Shown: in pieces, positions 4,081 to 36,876 of the stretch
How the letters are laid out: each line of letters starts with the position of its first letter
Numbering within the stretch: the stretch's first letter is position 1
Origin: a virus
Lineage: Duplodnaviria; Heunggongvirae; Uroviricota; Caudoviricetes
DNA: 46,563 nucleotides
Direction: 5' to 3' (one strand)
IMG/VR virus record: IMGVR_UViG_2721755658_000005
Location: 1-46,563 of that record
Notes under the pieces: model-generated
The model's database searches: none
What the model saw: the letters and a program-made list of their open reading frames with translations, nothing else
Told to the model about the DNA's origin: nothing
Program-made: the position numbers and the translations under genes

Positions 4081-5775
4081 CTAATTGGTCTCTATAATTG
4101 AGCTTAATTCGTTAATGAGCAGGTGAGGGCTCATTTGAGTTAAGTCATACTGCCGCCCCAATTTCTCTTGCATTCCTCCTCGTATTTTCTTTAATAAATA
4201 TTTGCCTTTAATGTTATTAACTGATGTCGGAACTTGGTTTCCAAATAATGTTAGGTGTCGAGGGCATGCTTCCAGTCTCCCCTTATATAAATTATATTTA
4301 ATCACCTCTCTTTTGGATTGAAAATCAGACTGGATGACAACATGATTTTGTGCGGCTATATCAGTAATCCATGTTTGTATATCTTGCACAGAAGAGCCTG
4401 TAACATGAGATAAATGCTCTATTCTGGTAAAATAACTCTCAATATCACTACCTTCAGTAATGAATGGAATGGCGCCACCTCTTTGAATTTCTGCTTTTAC
4501 TATATCTACTTCTTCATCAGTCATAAAATCGCGGTCACGATGAATTATAACCTTGCAATTAGGGGACATTTCCTTAAGAAGGTCAGCAGATACAATTGCT
4601 CCTTGCACATTTGTGCATGTTTTGTAGCTATAGACTGCAGTTCTCTCCATATCAAAACCATTATATTGTAAAAGGGCCTTGAAATATTTTTTATCTCTAT
4701 CTTCAGTGAGAAATATATTCTCCACAACTCCTTCAGTTACTCTATCCAAGTCATTTAAAGCTCCTAAATCTAAGAACATTGATATTTTGTCCAAATCCAT
4801 GCCTTGATTCTGAACATTACCATCTTTCATCCAAATAAAATTTGCCTCTCCATACAATGAATCAATTATATGTTTGCTATGAGTGGAAAGTATAACTTGA
4901 GTTTCTGATTTGTTATTTTCTGATATTAAACTCAATGAGTCAGTGAGAATATATTGATTATCAGGGTGAAGATGAGAATCCGGTTCATCTAAGAGTAATA
5001 ATTTAGGTTTGAAATATACTATATATGCAAATATCTGTAATGTTTGAAGTAATCCAGTTCCCGCCAACTCGATAGGGTAATTTTTCCCACTTGCATTTTC
5101 TTTAAAATTAACGGTTAGATAAGTATCTTTATCCTCTTTGAAATCCACTTCGATTTCTATATCTGGAAATACAACTTGCAGCATGCTATTGAGATTTACC
5201 AAGTGGTTATCTTTGTTCAGATAGTATATGACATTCCTTAAGTATAAATTTGCATCACCACTTGCCACTCCTCTTCTAACTATTGCTGGCGATTTTAATT
5301 CTTCCTTCTGTGAGATACCAGCCAGACCAGGGACATATATACTAAAGAGATTTTTTTCATCGGTGATTACTGAACCGAAGCCGGTATAATCACCGGTTCT
5401 TTCACATGACATATTTCCATGATTTCGTCCCTTAGATATAATTATATTGTATTCTAATTGTCGACCAGCAAGATCATCATATCCAAAAAGACTCAACACA
5501 CTTTGATTGCCAGGCGACCTCGAATTCTTATAAGGTTCGCCGTTCTTTAAAACAGTGAAGTCTGGGGTGATATTATACATTAAAAGTTCAGTAGAGAATG
5601 TTTGTTGACTTTGTTGCCGAGCGGCAATAGCTGCGCATACTGAAAAATGTATAGCTTGCAGAATACTGCTCTTACCTGAACTATTTGCCCCTACTAATAC
5701 ATTTATATCACTAAGGGTGATTTCTGCTGTGTCAATTTTTTTGAATTTACTAACAGACAAAGACTTAATGAACAT
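4081..5775 (-). CDS. ABC/AAA15-type ATPase fused to a Toprim/DUF4435-like C-terminal domain (OLD-family or fused PARIS AriA-AriB-like defence nuclease)
   Basis: ATPase motifs are present: Walker A GANSSGKSS, signature-like LAGTGLLQTL, Walker B LLLLDEPDSHLHP, and H-loop ILSTHS. The C-terminal part carries IFLTEDRDKKYF, IIHRDRDF and SDIESYF, which resemble the acidic Toprim/DUF4435 motifs. The ATG at 5775 has an AAGGA Shine-Dalgarno. The track start at 5793 is a TTG. Confidence 0.6.
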   Translation of the reverse strand: MFIKSLSVSKFKKIDTAEITLSDINVLVGANSSGKSSILQAIHFSVCAAIAARQQSQQTFSTELLMYNITPDFTVLKNGEPYKNSRSPGNQSVLSLFGYDDLAGRQLEYNIIISKGRNHGNMSCERTGDYTGFGSVITDEKNLFSIYVPGLAGISQKEELKSPAIVRRGVASGDANLYLRNVIYYLNKDNHLVNLNSMLQVVFPDIEIEVDFKEDKDTYLTVNFKENASGKNYPIELAGTGLLQTLQIFAYIVYFKPKLLLLDEPDSHLHPDNQYILTDSLSLISENNKSETQVILSTHSKHIIDSLYGEANFIWMKDGNVQNQGMDLDKISMFLDLGALNDLDRVTEGVVENIFLTEDRDKKYFKALLQYNGFDMERTAVYSYKTCTNVQGAIVSADLLKEMSPNCKVIIHRDRDFMTDEEVDIVKAEIQRGGAIPFITEGSDIESYFTRIEHLSHVTGSSVQDIQTWITDIAAQNHVVIQSDFQSKREVIKYNLYKGRLEACPRHLTLFGNQVPTSVNNIKGKYLLKKIRGGMQEKLGRQYDLTQMSPHLLINELSSIIETN

Positions 5776-31346: not shown

Positions 31347-31369
31347 CAATACGACTCACTAATGGGGAG
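31347..31369 (+). promoter_or_regulatory. T7-class phage RNA polymerase promoter-like sequence
   Basis: cAATACGACTCACTAATGGGGAG compared with the consensus TAATACGACTCACTATAGGGAGA. The 14 nt AATACGACTCACTA are exact. Confidence 0.6.
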
Positions 31370-31373
31370 GCAT

Positions 31374-31389
31374 GTCCAACGCGTTGGAC
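31374..31389. promoter_or_regulatory. perfect 16-bp palindrome GTCCAACGCGTTGGAC (operator-like)
   Basis: The sequence is self-complementary and lies between the two phage-type promoters. Confidence 0.5.
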
Positions 31390-31403
31390 GAGTTGCCTAC
31401 TTG

Positions 31404-31424
31404 ATTTAGGTGACACTTTAGAAG
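31404..31424 (+). promoter_or_regulatory. SP6-class phage RNA polymerase promoter-like sequence
   Basis: ATTTAGGTGACACTTTAGAAG compared with the consensus ATTTAGGTGACACTATAGAAG gives 20/21 matches. Confidence 0.6.
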
Positions 31425-31472: not shown

Positions 31473-31595
31473 ATGCTTCGTTCCAAAAATCAGTTGACTG
31501 TAATTATTACTACGTCACCTTATGCCGAAGACCTTTTCCGCTTCACTTTGAGCCTGATTCACTTCTACCTGACCGGCTCGCCTCTATCCTTCTGA
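31473..31595 (+). CDS. 40-codon ORF behind TAAGGAGG-N6-ATG
   Basis: It encodes MLRSKNQLTVIITTSPYAEDLFRFTLSLIHFYLTGSPLSF. The ORF is antisense to the 3' end of the Rz1-like gene. Confidence 0.3.
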   Translation: MLRSKNQLTVIITTSPYAEDLFRFTLSLIHFYLTGSPLSF

Positions 31596-31818: not shown

Positions 31819-32095
31819 CCGCAACAGCCACTTTGATATCTTCCTGGGTTCTCTGTGACTCCAGTGCGATCTGCTGTTTTGCATGCTGGTTAACCTCTAT
31901 AACTGTATTGACGATTTGCAGTGATTGCAGGACGTTACGGGTAATGGCTGTTGCAGATTCAACATTTTGTACAGCCTCATCAGCACGTTTCTTTTCGTGC
32001 TGATATTTGCTGTAGTAGTGGTTGGCAGACCAGATGAAAGAACCGATGACAGTAAAGAAGAATGCAGCGATAACCAGCTTATAGCTCAACTTCAT
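31703..32095 (-). CDS. i-spanin (Rz-like)
   Basis: 130 aa with an N-terminal TM segment and a coiled-coil region, downstream of the endolysin. Confidence 0.8.
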   Translation of the reverse strand: MKLSYKLVIAAFFFTVIGSFIWSANHYYSKYQHEKKRADEAVQNVESATAITRNVLQSLQIVNTVIEVNQHAKQQIALESQRTQEDIKVAVADDDCASRPVPAAAADRLRKYADSLRASSGYTVTGESDR

Positions 32096-32555
32096 TTACC
32101 ACCCCACCAGCCTCTTTAAACCGGGAAATCAGGTCACCGATTTTATGTTCATACTGACCGTAACCTGCACCAGGTAACGACGCCCAGATATTGCTGCAAC
32201 GATCGATAGCCTGACGGATATCACCGCGATCAATCATCGGTAAAGCGCCACGCTCTTTAATCTGCTGCAATGCCACTGCGTCCTGGCTTTTGGGGGAGAA
32301 GTCTTTCAAACCAAGCTGTTTACGGTAAGCATCCCACCAGCGTGAAAGAAGCTGATAACGTCCGGCGGCTGTTGATTTGAGTTTGGGGTTTAACGTGACA
32401 AGTTTGCGAGGGTGATCAGAGTAATCAGTAAACAGTTCGCCGCCAACAATAACATCATAACCGTGATTACGTGTCGGTTGTCGCCCGTTATCCGTTCCTT
32501 CTGACCATGCCACCATATCGAGGAAAGCTTTACGCTGGGAATTTAGTACCTGCAT
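32079..32555 (-). CDS. endolysin, lambda R-type lytic transglycosylase
   Basis: QRKAFLDMVAWSEGTDNGRQPTRNHGYDVIVGGELFTDYSDHPRKLVTLNPKL is nearly identical in pattern to lambda R. Confidence 0.9.
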   Translation of the reverse strand: MQVLNSQRKAFLDMVAWSEGTDNGRQPTRNHGYDVIVGGELFTDYSDHPRKLVTLNPKLKSTAAGRYQLLSRWWDAYRKQLGLKDFSPKSQDAVALQQIKERGALPMIDRGDIRQAIDRCSNIWASLPGAGYGQYEHKIGDLISRFKEAGGVVNEVEL

Positions 32556-32558
32556 AAA

Positions 32559-32885
32559 TTACTCCTTAGAGCCACCAAACTTATTACCGATTACTCTCAT
32601 TGCAGCCCCACGAATAGCATCAACACCGATCAGCCCCACCCCACCACCAATGGCAACAGATAGTGATTTAGGCCATCCGACATACTCAAGAGCGGATGCA
32701 AAAGTCAGCGTCAGAGCGCCACAGAGTAGAATTTCGAGTGTTTTTCGCTTCCAGCCGCCACCACCGCCAAAATAGGCAATACGTAAACCAGCCATAACAA
32801 TCGACATAATCACTGCGCCCAGCGGTGTGTCTCCACGCCACCAGCTCTGGACCAACTCCAGCCAGGTATTTGGGTTATGAGGCAT
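32559..32885 (-). CDS. holin
   Basis: 108 aa with multiple TM segments and a charged C-terminus, immediately upstream of the endolysin. Confidence 0.8.
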   Translation of the reverse strand: MPHNPNTWLELVQSWWRGDTPLGAVIMSIVMAGLRIAYFGGGGGWKRKTLEILLCGALTLTFASALEYVGWPKSLSVAIGGGVGLIGVDAIRGAAMRVIGNKFGGSKE

Positions 32886-33027
32886 TTGTAGTTATCTCTC
32901 ACCTCGCTGATACAGCAGGTGCAAATTGAGGGAACATCATGTACAGCAAATTAGAAGCGGAAACGTCAAAGAAGCCGAACCAATGGATAACTGCGGAATA
33001 GACCAGGACCAACGAATCCCCATCCCC

Positions 33028-33059
33028 AGAAACGACAAAACCCGCTCGACGGCGGGTTT
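33028..33059 (-). terminator. intrinsic terminator upstream of the holin (tR'-like late terminator)
   Basis: On the minus strand: AAACCCGC-CGTCGA-GCGGGTTTTGTCGTTT. Confidence 0.6.
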
Positions 33060-33231
33060 AAGCTGTGTGGCGAAGTAACCACTCTTAACACAGTAATCTA
33101 GAAAATGCGGACCGCGTTAGTGATTTTTATCTGTTTTTCCATTATTTTTTTGCCACACAGCTTAAAACGAAAAATAAAGCAGGCGTTGCCAAACCTCACG
33201 GTGACAGTTGGCTTAGAATGAGGACATATTT

Positions 33232-34251
33232 TTGGATAAGTTTGATGAGATTCATGTAGACATTGAATCTGAGCAGCAAGCCTTCGATTTGCTTGAAAGC
33301 TATCTTGATGGTTATGGTTTACCTGACAGTTTAAGTTTCAACGGATGGCCAAACCTTACCATCAGATTAACCGGTGAAAAATTCAACAGATCGCTAACAC
33401 CTTCAGTTATGAAGGGATTTGTTGAAATGCAAGCTCAAATCAACAAATCATATGCCCTTGCCAAGTACGGTGTCCCTGACGTCCGCAAACTGACCAAAGA
33501 AGAACTTGATGCCCTAGAAATAGAAGTTACGGTAGAACAGGGTTCTTCAATAGTAGAAATCAACATTGATGGCTTTTTAACCAAACTCACACAGGAACTT
33601 GTTGGTAAAATGAACGCAACTGAGATCATGTTTACTGTTCTCGGCGCAGCAGTCATCTGGGGCGGAGTAACAGTATTTAAACGGTTCTTGGACAACCGTA
33701 AAGATATTCGCCTTGCAGAAATTGCTAAGGATGGAGAGAAAGAACATCTCCGGACTATGCAGATCATGAGCGAGCAAGAAACTAAACGCCTGCGGGTTAT
33801 TTCAGAAATGATTGCGGAAAAACCACTTCTCGATAACATGGACCGTATGTCGTATGACGCTAAAACCCAAATGGTCAAATCCTTTGTGCGTTCAGATAAC
33901 GCTCAAATTGATGGCGTTACTATTGATTCTGAAATGGCGAAAGAGTTGGTTACGAATGCTCGTAGACGTTCATCAGAAATGAGGATTGATGGTATTTACC
34001 GAATTGAAGAAGTCAATAATACTGACCCAGAGAGTTTCAAAGTTAAGGTCCGACGCGTAGATACCGACCAACGTCTAACCTGCGTAGTTCAGGATGTTTT
34101 CCTTGATGAATCCGGAAACAAAGAAGCATTGCAGCGAGCTGAGTGGGAAAGAAAGCCTGTACATTTGAGCATTAACGCAAAACACGTCGATGGTGACATT
34201 AAGTCAGCAGTAATTCTCTATGTTCGAGATGTGGAACAAAAGCCCGAGTAA
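33232..34251 (+). CDS. 339-aa single-TM protein of unknown function (moron between Q and the late leader)
   Basis: The start is a TTG preceded by GAGGA 7 nt upstream. The central hydrophobic helix is IMFTVLGAAVIWGGVTVF. The gene is lower in GC than its neighbours and convergent with Q. Confidence 0.65.
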   Translation: MDKFDEIHVDIESEQQAFDLLESYLDGYGLPDSLSFNGWPNLTIRLTGEKFNRSLTPSVMKGFVEMQAQINKSYALAKYGVPDVRKLTKEELDALEIEVTVEQGSSIVEINIDGFLTKLTQELVGKMNATEIMFTVLGAAVIWGGVTVFKRFLDNRKDIRLAEIAKDGEKEHLRTMQIMSEQETKRLRVISEMIAEKPLLDNMDRMSYDAKTQMVKSFVRSDNAQIDGVTIDSEMAKELVTNARRRSSEMRIDGIYRIEEVNNTDPESFKVKVRRVDTDQRLTCVVQDVFLDESGNKEALQRAEWERKPVHLSINAKHVDGDIKSAVILYVRDVEQKPE

Positions 34252-34265
34252 TCGGGCTTCAATAA

Positions 34266-34643
34266 TCAATCTTTAATTTCGGGGTCCATCTCTAGACTAA
34301 TTTCCAGCATCGATAGGCAGCCATCAATAAACCCCTCAGCCATCTGTATCTCAATGCGTATTAGTTTCTCATCCTTTTTACGAGCCTTGGCGAGCTTTCT
34401 TTTAGAGATACCGTATAGGTAATGGGCAACAAGAAGCGAATGTTCGTCCGGCCTTTTTTGCCTTAGACGAGCAAGACAACCTTCAATAATTAATGCATCA
34501 CTATCTGAACATGCCTGACGTGTTTTGCTTGTATAGGGAAGAAGCCCTTTAAACCCAGCAGCTATAGGAGAATAGTCTACTCCTGAACTATCACTCGCCG
34601 CCCATGCTCCCCAACGATCCAGAACCATTTGAATATCACGCAT
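34266..34643 (-). CDS. late antiterminator Q
   Basis: MRDIQMVLDRWGAWAA... fits the Q family. The ATG at 34643 has a GGAGA Shine-Dalgarno. The track start at 34658 is a TTG. Confidence 0.8.
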   Translation of the reverse strand: MRDIQMVLDRWGAWAASDSSGVDYSPIAAGFKGLLPYTSKTRQACSDSDALIIEGCLARLRQKRPDEHSLLVAHYLYGISKRKLAKARKKDEKLIRIEIQMAEGFIDGCLSMLEISLEMDPEIKD

Positions 34644-34660
34644 CAACTTTCTCCACAAAA

Positions 34661-35656
34661 TCAGGCCAGCACGCCAATTGCCAGCGCACGATCGATAAAA
34701 CGAAATATCAGCTCCAACTGAGAGCCATACTTTTCTTCAAATACCACGGTATCCGCATGCAGCTCGTCGTGATGCTTTCTGCACAAAGGCAGCACGAAGA
34801 GGTCATGCGCTTTTGTACCCATTCCACCCTGACCGTGGCCTATCAGGTGGTGGGGATCATCTGCAGGCTTTCCACAACATGCACACGGCTGCGTCTTAAC
34901 CCAGCGCGTGTACTTTTCGTTAACCCAGCGGCGACGTTTGGGACGTAACATAAAAGACTCCGGCGACTCCGGATCCACTTTCAGCGCCAGCACCTTTTTC
35001 GCTTTATCCTGGATGATGCTGGTGGCAGGAACCGAAGGCACAAGGTCACTTTCCCGGGTGACAGACGGCACAACAGGCTTCGGTAATCTCAGTGCCTTAC
35101 GGGCTGCGCTTTCCGGTAAGGCATCCGCCAGGTCATTACGAACCAGCCACCAGCACAGTTCCGGCATTGTCACAACGTGACTGTCATCAAAACCGAGATC
35201 CCGACGCACGAGAGACAACACCCAGCGGGCACAGTTATCCGTTGCCATTGATTCCAGCCGTTCCGTGAATTGATCGCGCAGCTGGTTATCGCAGTGCCAG
35301 CACAGACGGATTGCGCCCGGCGCGTGTCGCATTGTTGTCATGTTCTCGCTGTGCCAGTCGGAATGAGGCCACTGGCAGCCTTTTTCACGAAGTAACCAGC
35401 TTTCAAGACATTCCACGCCACCAGCACGACGGATCACTGCCTCATTGCGGAACACGGCCCGAACGGCAGGATCATCCGCCAGCGGTTGTGATGCCGCCGG
35501 AACGGCACCACTGGCAAAAGATGAATAACGTTCCGGCTCAGGCTCCAGCAGGACACGCCCCTGCATAAACAGGGGCATCAGCTCTGAACCTGGTCTGAAC
35601 AATACGATCCCCATACGCGGGGCAATTTCAGGGGTCAGTAGTGCTCTCACGGTCAC
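34661..35656 (-). CDS. DUF968-domain protein (YdfU-like, C-terminal HNH-like Zn motif)
   Basis: The C-terminus reads CACCGKPADDPHHLIGHGQGGMGTKAHDLFVLPLCRKHHDELH. Confidence 0.75.
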   Translation of the reverse strand: MTVRALLTPEIAPRMGIVLFRPGSELMPLFMQGRVLLEPEPERYSSFASGAVPAASQPLADDPAVRAVFRNEAVIRRAGGVECLESWLLREKGCQWPHSDWHSENMTTMRHAPGAIRLCWHCDNQLRDQFTERLESMATDNCARWVLSLVRRDLGFDDSHVVTMPELCWWLVRNDLADALPESAARKALRLPKPVVPSVTRESDLVPSVPATSIIQDKAKKVLALKVDPESPESFMLRPKRRRWVNEKYTRWVKTQPCACCGKPADDPHHLIGHGQGGMGTKAHDLFVLPLCRKHHDELHADTVVFEEKYGSQLELIFRFIDRALAIGVLA

Positions 35657-35657
35657 C

Positions 35658-36467
35658 TCAATGAACGGTATCGAGCAGCTTTAACAGCTCAGGGAATCGG
35701 GATTCGAAAAAGTGCGGCTGCGTCTCGCGCGGATTTGCGGGACTGGTGATGTTCTTGCCGAACATGCAGCCTTTCGCTGTCAGCGACCAGAATTTTTTGA
35801 TGTTGTTAATCGCGGTACGGCTGTATCGTTCGCGCTGCTCGACGATCCCCAGCTTCACCATCTGGTGATATGCCTGATTAGCCGTCAGGCGGATACCATA
35901 CTGCTTCAGCAGTGCACTCAGTGACAGTGTCGGGCGACTTGAGCCATCGTGTGCATCAGCAGGGGCATCAATGGCATAGCGCGGTGCCAGATTCGGTAAG
36001 CCAACAGCCTCCTGGAGTTTCTGACAGGCACCAAGCACTGATGAGTTAGACAGGTTTAATTCCCGGCGCATAAAGTCCAGCAGGATCACGCCAGCCTGCA
36101 TCTTGTCAGCAGCCTGCCCGGATAATTTTTCGGGTGCGCTGGTTACCATATCGAAAGTACGGATCACCTTCAGATGGAATGCCGGGCTGATCCACATTGC
36201 ATAGGCATACACCAGTTCTTTGCAGACATACGTCCCCTGGTTATTTCCGCCATTAATAACGCTAACTGGTTGATTCTTTTCCAGAGGCGGAATTCCACCC
36301 TCGGTGAAAAGTTGTTCAATCAGTTCACAGGTTTGCTTATTGGAGAGCCAGTATTTCGGGCGGTTTTTTTGTTCTCCCCCGGCAGCCCGATGCAGATCGT
36401 TCAGGCTGTAACGACCATAAGCATCACGACGAACTTCAATACCATCAATGACCATCAGATTATTCAT
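35658..36467 (-). CDS. KilA-N domain protein
   Basis: The N-terminus reads VIDGIEVRRDAYGRYSLNDLHRAAGGEQKNRPKYWLSNKQT. Confidence 0.8.
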   Translation of the reverse strand: MNNLMVIDGIEVRRDAYGRYSLNDLHRAAGGEQKNRPKYWLSNKQTCELIEQLFTEGGIPPLEKNQPVSVINGGNNQGTYVCKELVYAYAMWISPAFHLKVIRTFDMVTSAPEKLSGQAADKMQAGVILLDFMRRELNLSNSSVLGACQKLQEAVGLPNLAPRYAIDAPADAHDGSSRPTLSLSALLKQYGIRLTANQAYHQMVKLGIVEQRERYSRTAINNIKKFWSLTAKGCMFGKNITSPANPRETQPHFFESRFPELLKLLDTVH

Positions 36468-36486: not shown

Positions 36487-36876
36487 TCAGGCGGCTGCAC
36501 CCGCCGTTTTCTCGTACTTACTGATAGTGATCTCGACCTTCCCTCCCGGGATAACCGGTCCCCACTCAACCAGCATTCTTTTCACCTGACTGTCGTCTTC
36601 CCACACACCCGCGTGGGTCAGGGCGTCAAACAGCGCCTTGTTATAGTTGTCCAGATCGCGGATCCGGTTATCCGGAGGAAACAACACGATCTCCACTGAA
36701 GCAGGTGCCGACGTTGGTTTCGGCAGACGACGTAACTGCTCAACTATTGCTGCGCACGCCGCGCTCTGGAATTTTCGCCCCGCCGTGCTTATCAGGCTCT
36801 TACCAGCAAACGCCCCTTTGTTGGGGTGTCGCCAGTACGTGTTCACACTGGGCGGGAAAGGCAGGATCAGCTTCAT
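36487..36876 (-). CDS. rusA: Holliday junction resolvase RusA
   Basis: LPFPPSVNTYWRH...RDLDNYNKALFDALTHAGVWEDDSQV is the RusA signature. Confidence 0.9.
   Translation of the reverse strand: MKLILPFPPSVNTYWRHPNKGAFAGKSLISTAGRKFQSAACAAIVEQLRRLPKPTSAPASVEIVLFPPDNRIRDLDNYNKALFDALTHAGVWEDDSQVKRMLVEWGPVIPGGKVEITISKYEKTAGAAA

Follow-up and report, generated by a model that had tools for sequence, protein, structure and literature searches.

Results

The gene and its surroundings

The DNA analysed here (hereafter the window) spans positions 1 to 46,563 of the IMG/VR record IMGVR_UViG_2721755658_000005 and is an SfII/SfIV-like lambdoid prophage of E. coli. The subject of this study is a gene of 339 codons, encoded on the + strand between the antiterminator gene Q and the leader of the late operon; the surrounding phage genes, from RusA to Rz/Rz1, are all on the − strand. 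The gene is convergent with Q, with 14 nucleotides between the two stop codons, and divergent from the holin gene, with a 346-nucleotide leader between them, in the orientation given in a preliminary description of the sequence. The features of the locus are:

33232..34251, + strand: coding sequence of 339 amino acids with a TTG start; member of PHROG 6191, identical to WP_000357056.1
33133..34284, + strand: swap cassette of 1.15 kb (5' region, coding sequence and putative terminator hairpin), delimited by blastn against sister prophages
33133..33231, + strand: 5' region of the cassette, 99 nucleotides, with GAGGA at 33220-33224; accompanies the gene in both E. coli and Enterobacter
34232..34260, both strands: GC-rich hairpin of 8-9 bp overlapping the stop codon of the gene; free energy −16 to −17 kcal/mol, z-score about −3.8 on each strand
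34266..34658, − strand: antiterminator Q gene (RefSeq 'antiterminator Q family protein'; PF06530 in the Enterobacter orthologue), right-hand anchor of the hotspot
33037..33132, − strand: late-leader block, left-hand anchor of the hotspot, including the intrinsic terminator 33059-33038
32559..32885, − strand: lambda-family holin, the first late gene downstream of the leader
32079..32555, − strand: lysozyme, followed by Rz/Rz1 (− strand)
34661..35656, − strand: DUF968
35658..36467, − strand: KilA-N
36487..36876, − strand: RusA

The open reading frame (ORF) is a real gene under strong purifying selection. Its TTG codon follows the Shine-Dalgarno sequence GAGGA after a 7-nucleotide spacer, as first described, and is the only plausible start because an in-frame TAG lies five codons 5' of it; Enterobacter orthologues keep both the TTG and a GGCTTAGAATGAGG block around the ribosome-binding site. 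The product shows 100% identity to the RefSeq E. coli protein WP_000357056.1, and homologues reach E=1e-215. Comparison with an 86%-identical Enterobacter orthologue gave a non-synonymous divergence (pN) of 0.08 against a synonymous divergence (pS) of 0.80, at which synonymous sites are saturated, and the gene is therefore under purifying selection. The ORF has a GC fraction of 0.42, against 0.50 for the window and 0.56 for the adjoining DUF968 gene; it is thus of lower GC, as had been noted, and so is Q (0.44).

Searches against PHROGs returned a full-length match to phrog_6191 ('unknown function'; E=1.6e-152, residues 3-337 of 339 against profile positions 2-337 of 338), which is also matched by phi458 Orf11, Pmp14_0057 and the Mcat17 protein AKI27728. 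When 1.84 billion cluster representatives were searched with a profile, 1,511 clusters (at 50% identity) reached E<=1e-3, 588 of them E<=1e-30; virtually all are of 320-350 amino acids and match end to end, and they come from prophages of Gammaproteobacteria and Burkholderiales and from Treponema metagenome-assembled genomes (MAGs). PHROG 6191 is a large family of fixed architecture with no named member. Searches of Pfam and NCBIfam matched no family, PADLOC-DB v2.0.0 (including its Abi, PD-T4/T7/Lambda and candidate PDC families) gave none at E<=1, and a PDB sequence search with the family profile gave no match, in agreement with the earlier remark that the protein has no recognised motif. 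MetS-like matches were set aside, as they merely reflect the hydrophobic helix. Literature searches for WP_000357056, phrog_6191 and gene-level data on phi458 found nothing in main texts.

The gene occupies a cargo-swap hotspot

Comparison with sister prophages by blastn showed that the gene sits in a slot where different cargo is held between conserved flanks. The late-side flank (holin and leader) is 90-96% conserved up to 33120-33132 in SfIV and in the E. coli loci L018, L019, L020 and L021. Similarity on the Q side resumes at 34285-34291 in L018 and L019, whose Q allele is the same as that of the window, and at 34597 in SfII and L021, which carry other Q alleles. Between these points the cargo differs among prophages, always on the strand opposite to Q and holin:

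SfIV (L013): 356-amino-acid and 108-amino-acid proteins
SfII: PADLOC candidate system PDC-M53 A+B
E. coli FDAARGOS_1262 (L018): 248-amino-acid HNH-endonuclease-like protein (PDC-M68A)
E. coli SCEC020023 (L019): SDH-family Clp-fold serine protease, 4141-5136, uncharacterised
E. coli E50 (L020) and SC407 (L021): 'nucleoid-associated protein' and a protein of about 400 amino acids

The E50 pair (WP_000355468.1 and WP_000150292.1) is DS-1, which DefensePredictor (DeWeirdt, Mahoney & Laub, Science 2026, PMC13092281) marks 'defensive TRUE' in its Table S6; Table S10 of that work counts both the HNH protein and the SC407 pair among its 'predicted novel defense genes'. Because the same flanks hold the validated DS-1 and predicted defence genes, the Q-to-late-leader slot is a genuine defence hotspot with nucleotide-sharp boundaries. 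The SfIV pair, SfIV_49/SfIV_48, is uncharacterised slot cargo.

Moron-type cargo in a variable slot beside Q, on the opposite strand, had been proposed in the preliminary description, and the conserved flanks with different cargo in sister prophages substantiate this. Its equation of the slot with that of the Shiga toxin (Stx) genes does not hold, since the gene lies on the Q side of the late-leader terminator (33059-33038) and antisense to the leader. Stx genes are located downstream of pR'/tR' and share a transcript with the late genes. Stx-type morons resemble the window gene in being accessory genes of a lambdoid prophage's Q-to-lysis interval, but they are read in the sense direction on a Q-dependent late transcript, whereas the window gene is upstream of the late leader and antisense.

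The 5' region of the cassette must contain the promoter of the gene. A promoter scan gave a single match upstream of the gene, which is implausible, its −10 hexamer abutting the start codon; the sequences TTGCCA and TAGAAT are conserved there but lie 22-23 nucleotides apart, and no promoter was called. At the other end, the hairpin at 34232-34260 is followed on the − strand by UUUUGUU, and 6 nucleotides separate it from the stop codon of Q. It resembles a terminator of transcription coming from Q and on the + strand would close the cargo gene, and it belongs to the swap cassette rather than to the Q flank. A further + strand hairpin, at 33104-33118, was considered as an insulator against upstream transcription and rejected, its z-score of 0.14 not being significant.

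Of 5,426 complete E. coli genomes, 86 have the gene adjoining Q. In 83 of the 86, similarity ends at 33037, before the window's holin-proximal leader; one of these that was examined (L001) carries a DNA methyltransferase and EssD/RrrD in a late region unlike that of the window.

The left-hand anchor itself contains a 60-nucleotide element (33037-33096) made up of a hairpin, GUGG...CCAC, and the intrinsic terminator. This element recurs with 95-98% identity in over 2,500 E. coli genomes, K-12 derivatives among them, and in many lambda-like phages (434, Lambda_4C10, mEp332). It is unchanged beside different Q alleles, a surprising constancy if Q has to match its site.

Predicted architecture of the protein

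An AlphaFold2 model built with a 43-sequence alignment (predicted local distance difference test, pLDDT, 84.7; predicted template-modelling score, pTM, 0.67) consists of an alpha/beta domain (residues 1-125), a long helix (129-163) that begins, over half its length, with the hydrophobic segment, a helical region (167-240) and a beta-barrel (248-333); folded domains thus lie on both sides of the helix, as the preliminary description had envisaged. The parts of the protein correspond to the gene as follows:

33232..33615, + strand: N-terminal alpha/beta domain, residues 1-128; acidic, isoelectric point 4.5
33622..33678, + strand: central hydrophobic helix, residues 131-149, predicted membrane anchor (hydropathy, 43 + 146 homologues)
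33679..33963, + strand: helical stalk or bundle, residues 150-244, the least conserved region
33964..34236, + strand: C-terminal OB-fold, residues 245-335, with conserved RIDGxYRI and LQxAEW motifs

The structure comparisons suggested for the two terminal domains were informative at one end of the protein. The C-terminal domain proved to be an OB-fold, a five-stranded closed beta-barrel with a helix between strands 3 and 4, and is near neutral (median net charge −1). The N-terminal domain is the most conserved part of the protein, with the motifs GWPxL...LTGEKFxxSLTPSVMKGF and GSS; it had no match in the PDB and, as modelled, appears to be an orphan fold. Foldseek against the BFVD viral models returned three full-length-like matches with E of about 1e-5 but template-modelling scores of only 0.25-0.31, to a DUF6575 protein (the best), Leptospira phage LE1 Q6NE06 and one more. 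These were dropped as a source of function because of the low scores and because all three proteins are uncharacterised. Another E. coli protein listed as a 'predicted novel defense gene', WP_001288169.1 (310 amino acids; DefensePredictor Table S5, PMC13092281), has weak HHpred matches to DUF6575 (residues 62-161) and to a bacterial OB-fold (residues 235-293), and it may form with the window protein a wider DUF6575-plus-OB class of prophage proteins.

The segment IMFTVLGAAVIWGGVTVF (residues 132-149) is the only hydrophobic one in the protein. It is kept in 146 relatives, with 15-19 hydrophobic residues and a median 19-residue Kyte-Doolittle score of 1.69 (66% reach 1.6); in the model it forms a helix with a pLDDT of about 90, and it contains small-residue (Gly/Ala) motifs. 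A single transmembrane span is a reasonable prediction; of the one central transmembrane helix originally described, the unique, conserved hydrophobic segment stands, while its transmembrane status, at this moderate hydrophobicity, is only predicted. Lysine and arginine are more abundant in the 15 residues after the segment than in those before it in 105 of the 146 sequences (mean 3.7 versus 2.0), which by the positive-inside rule would make the N-terminal domain external and the stalk and OB-fold cytoplasmic. Both halves of the family proteins contain few cysteines.

Residues 247-291 weakly match the FNIII-A domain of gpJ (E=0.002). FNIII-A_GpJ was rejected as an identity for the domain, the match being under the Pfam cutoff and found in only 2 of 146 members.

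Genomic contexts of family members

The contexts of relatives were examined in roughly 20 lineages. Members in Enterobacter, Entomohabitans, Rahnella and Serratia occupy the Q slot, convergent with Q. In about 10 lineages the member lies directly 3' of a cI/S24-type repressor gene and co-oriented with it, at gaps of 26-240 nucleotides: in Salmonella/Klebsiella, Yersinia (between cI and N), Morganella, E. coli phage phi458 (Orf11), Moraxella phage Mcat17, Acinetobacter, two Pseudomonas species and two Treponema MAGs. The P. aeruginosa member (L002-L005, 6001-7002) is inserted between a gpI-like gene and the gpJ tail-tip gene, directly upstream of the latter, and the Halomonas/Vreelandella member lies between a Mu gpG-like gene and the gene for the Mu I protease. 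Adjacency to gpJ in P. aeruginosa and the gpJ-like FNIII-A match may be a coincidence or a hint of entry-protein mimicry.

The cI-N interval, a recognised mosaic hotspot, is home to RexAB and BstA, and in lysogeny cI ranks with the most strongly transcribed genes of the prophage (Owen et al. 2021, PMC8585504); DS-34, validated in DefensePredictor, is a unit of cI and a membrane protein (PMC13092281). Since family members sit 3' of cI and co-oriented with it in some 10 other lineages, expression of the 339-codon gene in the lysogen is plausible, and the repressor-side and Q-slot pattern is the main evidence for cargo expressed from the prophage state.

The family has no constant partner gene among the roughly 20 lineages. 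A convergent gene of 68-69 amino acids with weak similarity to DUF2767 follows the member in Salmonella (L009-L012, 7028-7234, − strand) and Yersinia (L025-L027, about 5100-5417, − strand); it is absent from the other contexts, was rejected as a partner and is probably prophage backbone. In a Mu-like prophage of Vreelandella maris (L038, 2126-3355), a Mu F-like head protein beside the member has a C-terminal PBECR2 (Barnase/EndoU/colicin-like) nuclease domain.

Discussion

Defence or exclusion as the probable function of the gene

Defence or exclusion is the best reading of the 339-codon gene, because the validated DS-1 occupies the same slot and because DefensePredictor lists this exact protein. 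WP_000357056.1 appears in Table S10 as 'Predicted novel defense gene', with log-odds of mean 6.55, minimum 4.5 and maximum 9.7 against a stringent cutoff of 4, and is not in the tested and validated tables S6-S8 (PMC13092281). Taken over all mechanisms, we consider an anti-phage role moderately probable. The best explanation as a whole, a stand-alone moron cassette encoding a membrane-held defence protein made in the lysogen, we regard as slightly on the probable side of even. Of the membrane-acting exclusion or abortive-infection effector originally suggested, exclusion or defence is thus upheld as the best reading; that the protein acts at the membrane we purely infer.

Several observations weigh against this interpretation. 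The members in P. aeruginosa and Halomonas/Vreelandella are co-oriented inside late structural operons, where late expression is possible, and the promoter scan found no convincing sigma-70 consensus upstream of the window gene. No known effector, nuclease, protease or sensor domain was recognised in the protein, and its non-basic OB-fold weakens the analogy with nucleic-acid binders. A crude Hessa-scale sum for the hydrophobic segment is positive, that of a marginal membrane span. The positive-inside rule puts the acidic 128-residue domain outside, yet a signal-peptide-like N-terminus is seen in none of 146 homologues, and basic N-terminal extensions occur in some; topology is ambiguous for these reasons. 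Only 45% of cloned DefensePredictor predictions were validated (PMC13092281). The predictor also partly uses the same kind of contextual signal.

If the gene does encode a lysogen-made defence protein, it would be transcribed from its own promoter in the window prophage and, elsewhere, together with cI from pRM-type promoters. Induction would then switch it off, here by antisense Q read-through and elsewhere by loss of cI-dependent transcription, and such a shut-off would offer a simple route to self-immunity. The central helix would hold the protein at the inner membrane with the stalk and OB-fold in the cytoplasm, as the positive-inside rule predicts, and the soluble domains would recognise a component of the incoming phage. 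Infection would be aborted at the membrane, most probably because the helices oligomerise with one another and membrane integrity collapses. Binding and membrane action, rather than enzymatic attack, are expected because the protein has no recognisable catalytic domain, and abortive collapse is favoured over a pure entry block because the Gly/Ala-rich helix suggests oligomerisation; on this analysis an abortive outcome would be preferred by a small margin.

It is also possible, if unlikely, that the protein excludes superinfecting phages at entry and the cell survives. The N-terminal domain would then be periplasmic and the OB-fold cytoplasmic, and the protein would block genome ejection or translocation by binding tail-tip, tape-measure or ejection proteins or the host inner-membrane channel that these use. 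HK97 gp15, P22 SieA and T4 Imm exclude at the entry step, where SNIPE acts too, though through a nuclease that the window protein lacks. The modelled bitopic architecture, with a folded domain on either side of a single helix, would suit this role, as would the lack of a toxic or catalytic domain and the N-out/C-in arrangement favoured by the positive-inside rule and shown experimentally for SNIPE. The position of the P. aeruginosa copy directly upstream of gpJ also agrees with it, exclusion genes being often tail-linked (HK97 gp15, cited in PMC10884400), and the sub-threshold gpJ FNIII-A match (E=0.002) points the same way but falls under the Pfam cutoff and is seen in 2 of 146 members only. 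Export of a folded 128-residue domain without a signal peptide would, however, be unusual, and the basic N-terminal extensions likewise argue against a periplasmic N-terminus. Furthermore, most members lie by cI, where the characterised cargo (RexAB, BstA, DS-34) is abortive or uncharacterised. Tab (JBD26), considered as a candidate given the Pseudomonas tail-module site, is an unrelated 83-amino-acid protein and was rejected.

A further reading, which we consider improbable, is a new class of nuclease-free transmembrane sensor-blocker: the N-terminal domain would be exported without a signal peptide and contact the ejection apparatus of the infecting phage in the periplasm, and the cytoplasmic stalk and OB-fold would plug entry or trigger membrane collapse. 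If true, this would be a single-protein, outside-in signalling defence found from enterics to spirochaetes.

Similarly improbable is a function in lysogenic conversion or host physiology (envelope, stress tolerance, biofilm or virulence) rather than in defence. Morons of the Q-to-lysis interval include the non-defence genes bor and iss, the latter lying just beyond the lysis genes in L019 and L020; phi458, which carries a member, has been linked to biofilm and virulence at the level of the whole prophage (PMC9701743); and no known defence model is matched. The hosts differ so widely, however, from enterics, Pseudomonas and Acinetobacter to halophiles and Treponema, that a phage-directed function fits better. 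Both main slots hold validated defence systems, and the DefensePredictor score lies above the stringent cutoff, which also count against a conversion factor.

We think it very unlikely that the gene is not cargo at all and serves the phage life cycle in lysis, morphogenesis or DNA handling. It adjoins the lysis cassette here, relatives are sense-oriented inside tail or head operons of some phages, and OB-folds are common among phage DNA-handling proteins. Yet the closest sisters, SfII and SfIV, are viable phages without the gene, unrelated cargo replaces it between identical flanks, it is antisense to the late operon, and from one lineage to the next it keeps no fixed place with respect to any module.

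A T7/SP6-like promoter element is independent of the gene

Some 1.8 kb upstream on the + strand, in a gap of about 600 nucleotides between an HNH gene and Rz1, lie two phage-promoter-like sequences. At 31347-31364, CAATACGACTCACTAATG has three mismatches to the T7 consensus and is followed by GGGGAGG; at 31404-31421, ATTTAGGTGACACTTTAG has one mismatch to the SP6 consensus and is followed by AAGGACAG. The two are 57 nucleotides apart, and none of 100 shuffles gave either match. Directly 3' of the pair is AAGGAGG-N6-ATG, which begins an ORF of 40 amino acids (31473-31595, + strand; MLRSKNQLTVIITTSPYAEDLFRFTLSLIHFYLTGSPLSF) that runs antisense into Rz1.

The promoter-like sequences noted at 31347-31424 in the preliminary description are thus real and on the same strand as the gene, whereas the link drawn between the two is unsupported. 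The element is independent of the gene: SfIV (L013, 507-574) keeps it at the same spacing without the 339-codon gene, and it is absent from all of the more than 20 other fetched loci that carry a family member. Its 1.8-kb distance from the gene in the window is a local coincidence of two cargo sites. Hence an RNA polymerase tripwire, in which an infecting phage's T7/SP6-type enzyme would fire 31347-31424 and read through into the gene, inducing it in infected cells alone, is extremely unlikely: the two sequences are highly non-random and nothing between them and the ORF scores as a significant + strand terminator, but besides the loci just named, 83 of the 86 gene-bearing E. coli genomes lose similarity at 33037, the late region of L001 lacks the element, and the element has its own 40-codon ORF with a strong ribosome-binding site immediately downstream. 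On its own, the element may act on phage RNA polymerases as a tripwire or decoy; a search of the literature for a T7/SP6-promoter defence concept found nothing in main texts.

Implications

If the gene is a defence gene, it would be the founding member of a very large, architecture-stable family without a characterised relative, and would add a single-gene, non-enzymatic, membrane-anchored mechanism to the prophage defences; the Q-to-pR' interval of SfII-like and DLP12-like prophages would then stand as a defence hotspot alongside the cI-N interval. The novelty is tempered by the protein having already been flagged in a published prediction table, and a defence-like moron in this slot would come as no surprise to a specialist. 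The family is nonetheless large, has an orphan fold and moves between two classic prophage slots. The cassette, 1.15 kb long, self-contained and present in 86 complete E. coli genomes, is cheap to test.

Comparison with known systems

In architecture, the closest systems are PdpSau, AbiP and SNIPE. In AbiP of Lactococcus and PdpSau of S. aureus prophages, a membrane anchor is joined to an OB-fold with an assigned cytoplasmic location, and both proteins act by abortive infection (PMC10127798); PdpSau and RexB are both reported to act by membrane collapse (PMC10127798, PMC8585504). Like the window protein, PdpSau and AbiP are single-gene, prophage- or mobile-element-borne proteins with one helix, an OB-fold-type domain and no enzymatic domain. 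pdpSau is, moreover, a moron by the holin and lysin genes, where it replaces other cargo (PVL) (PMC10127798), and the window gene is likewise near lysis genes. The helix of PdpSau and AbiP, however, is N-terminal with nothing before it, whereas that of the window protein is central, behind a 128-residue orphan domain; their cytoplasmic part is positively charged and the window OB-fold near neutral; and they occur in Gram-positive hosts and show no detectable sequence similarity to the window protein (PADLOC). An N-terminal anchor directly followed by a basic domain, which defines an AbiP/PdpSau-like protein, is not what the window protein has.

SNIPE is an E. coli nuclease, bound to the membrane, that cleaves phage DNA during injection; it is an N-out single-pass protein whose cytoplasmic part acts at the entry site (PMC13190303). 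It too is a stand-alone protein with a single-pass helix, its N-out/C-in topology being experimental where that of the window protein is predicted. In contrast to the window protein, in which Pfam found neither domain, SNIPE has DUF4041 and a GIY-YIG nuclease; its helix lies within the first 70 residues rather than at 131-149, and no homology between the two is detectable.

In position, the closest system is DS-1, which consists of an NdpA-like 'nucleoid-associated protein' and a 404-amino-acid protein and occupies exactly the slot of the window gene, on the opposite strand. At the DS-1 locus (E50) the late-side flank has about 91% nucleotide identity to the window, and the Q allele is divergent. 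DS-1 is a two-gene system of unrelated proteins and is experimentally validated, whereas the window gene is only predicted. Also close in position are RexAB, BstA and DS-34 (cI plus an AbiZ-like protein), which share the place and orientation of most family members, 3' of the repressor gene and presumably on a common transcript with it in lysogens; two of these proteins, RexB and that of DS-34, are in addition membrane proteins. Unlike these, the window copy lies beside Q and not beside cI. RexAB is a two-gene system with a four-span RexB; BstA, a soluble KilA-N protein, comes with a DNA element for self-immunity, 'aba'; and none of the three systems shows homology to the window protein.

HK97 gp15, P22 SieA and T4 Imm resemble the window protein as membrane proteins of phages or prophages that lack enzymatic domains. 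All three are much smaller and have neither large soluble domains nor an OB-fold, and no similarity to the window protein was detected. HK97 gp15 is a moron in the tail module (cited in PMC10884400), as is the P. aeruginosa family member.

Given the lack of sequence similarity, the central helix and the absence of a nuclease, DUF4041 or KilA-N domain, the window protein lies outside the known systems: it is a member of none of them, and is a member of PHROG 6191 with an OB-fold. We rate it as a candidate prophage-borne, single-gene, membrane-anchored defence or exclusion protein that stands apart from each system described so far.

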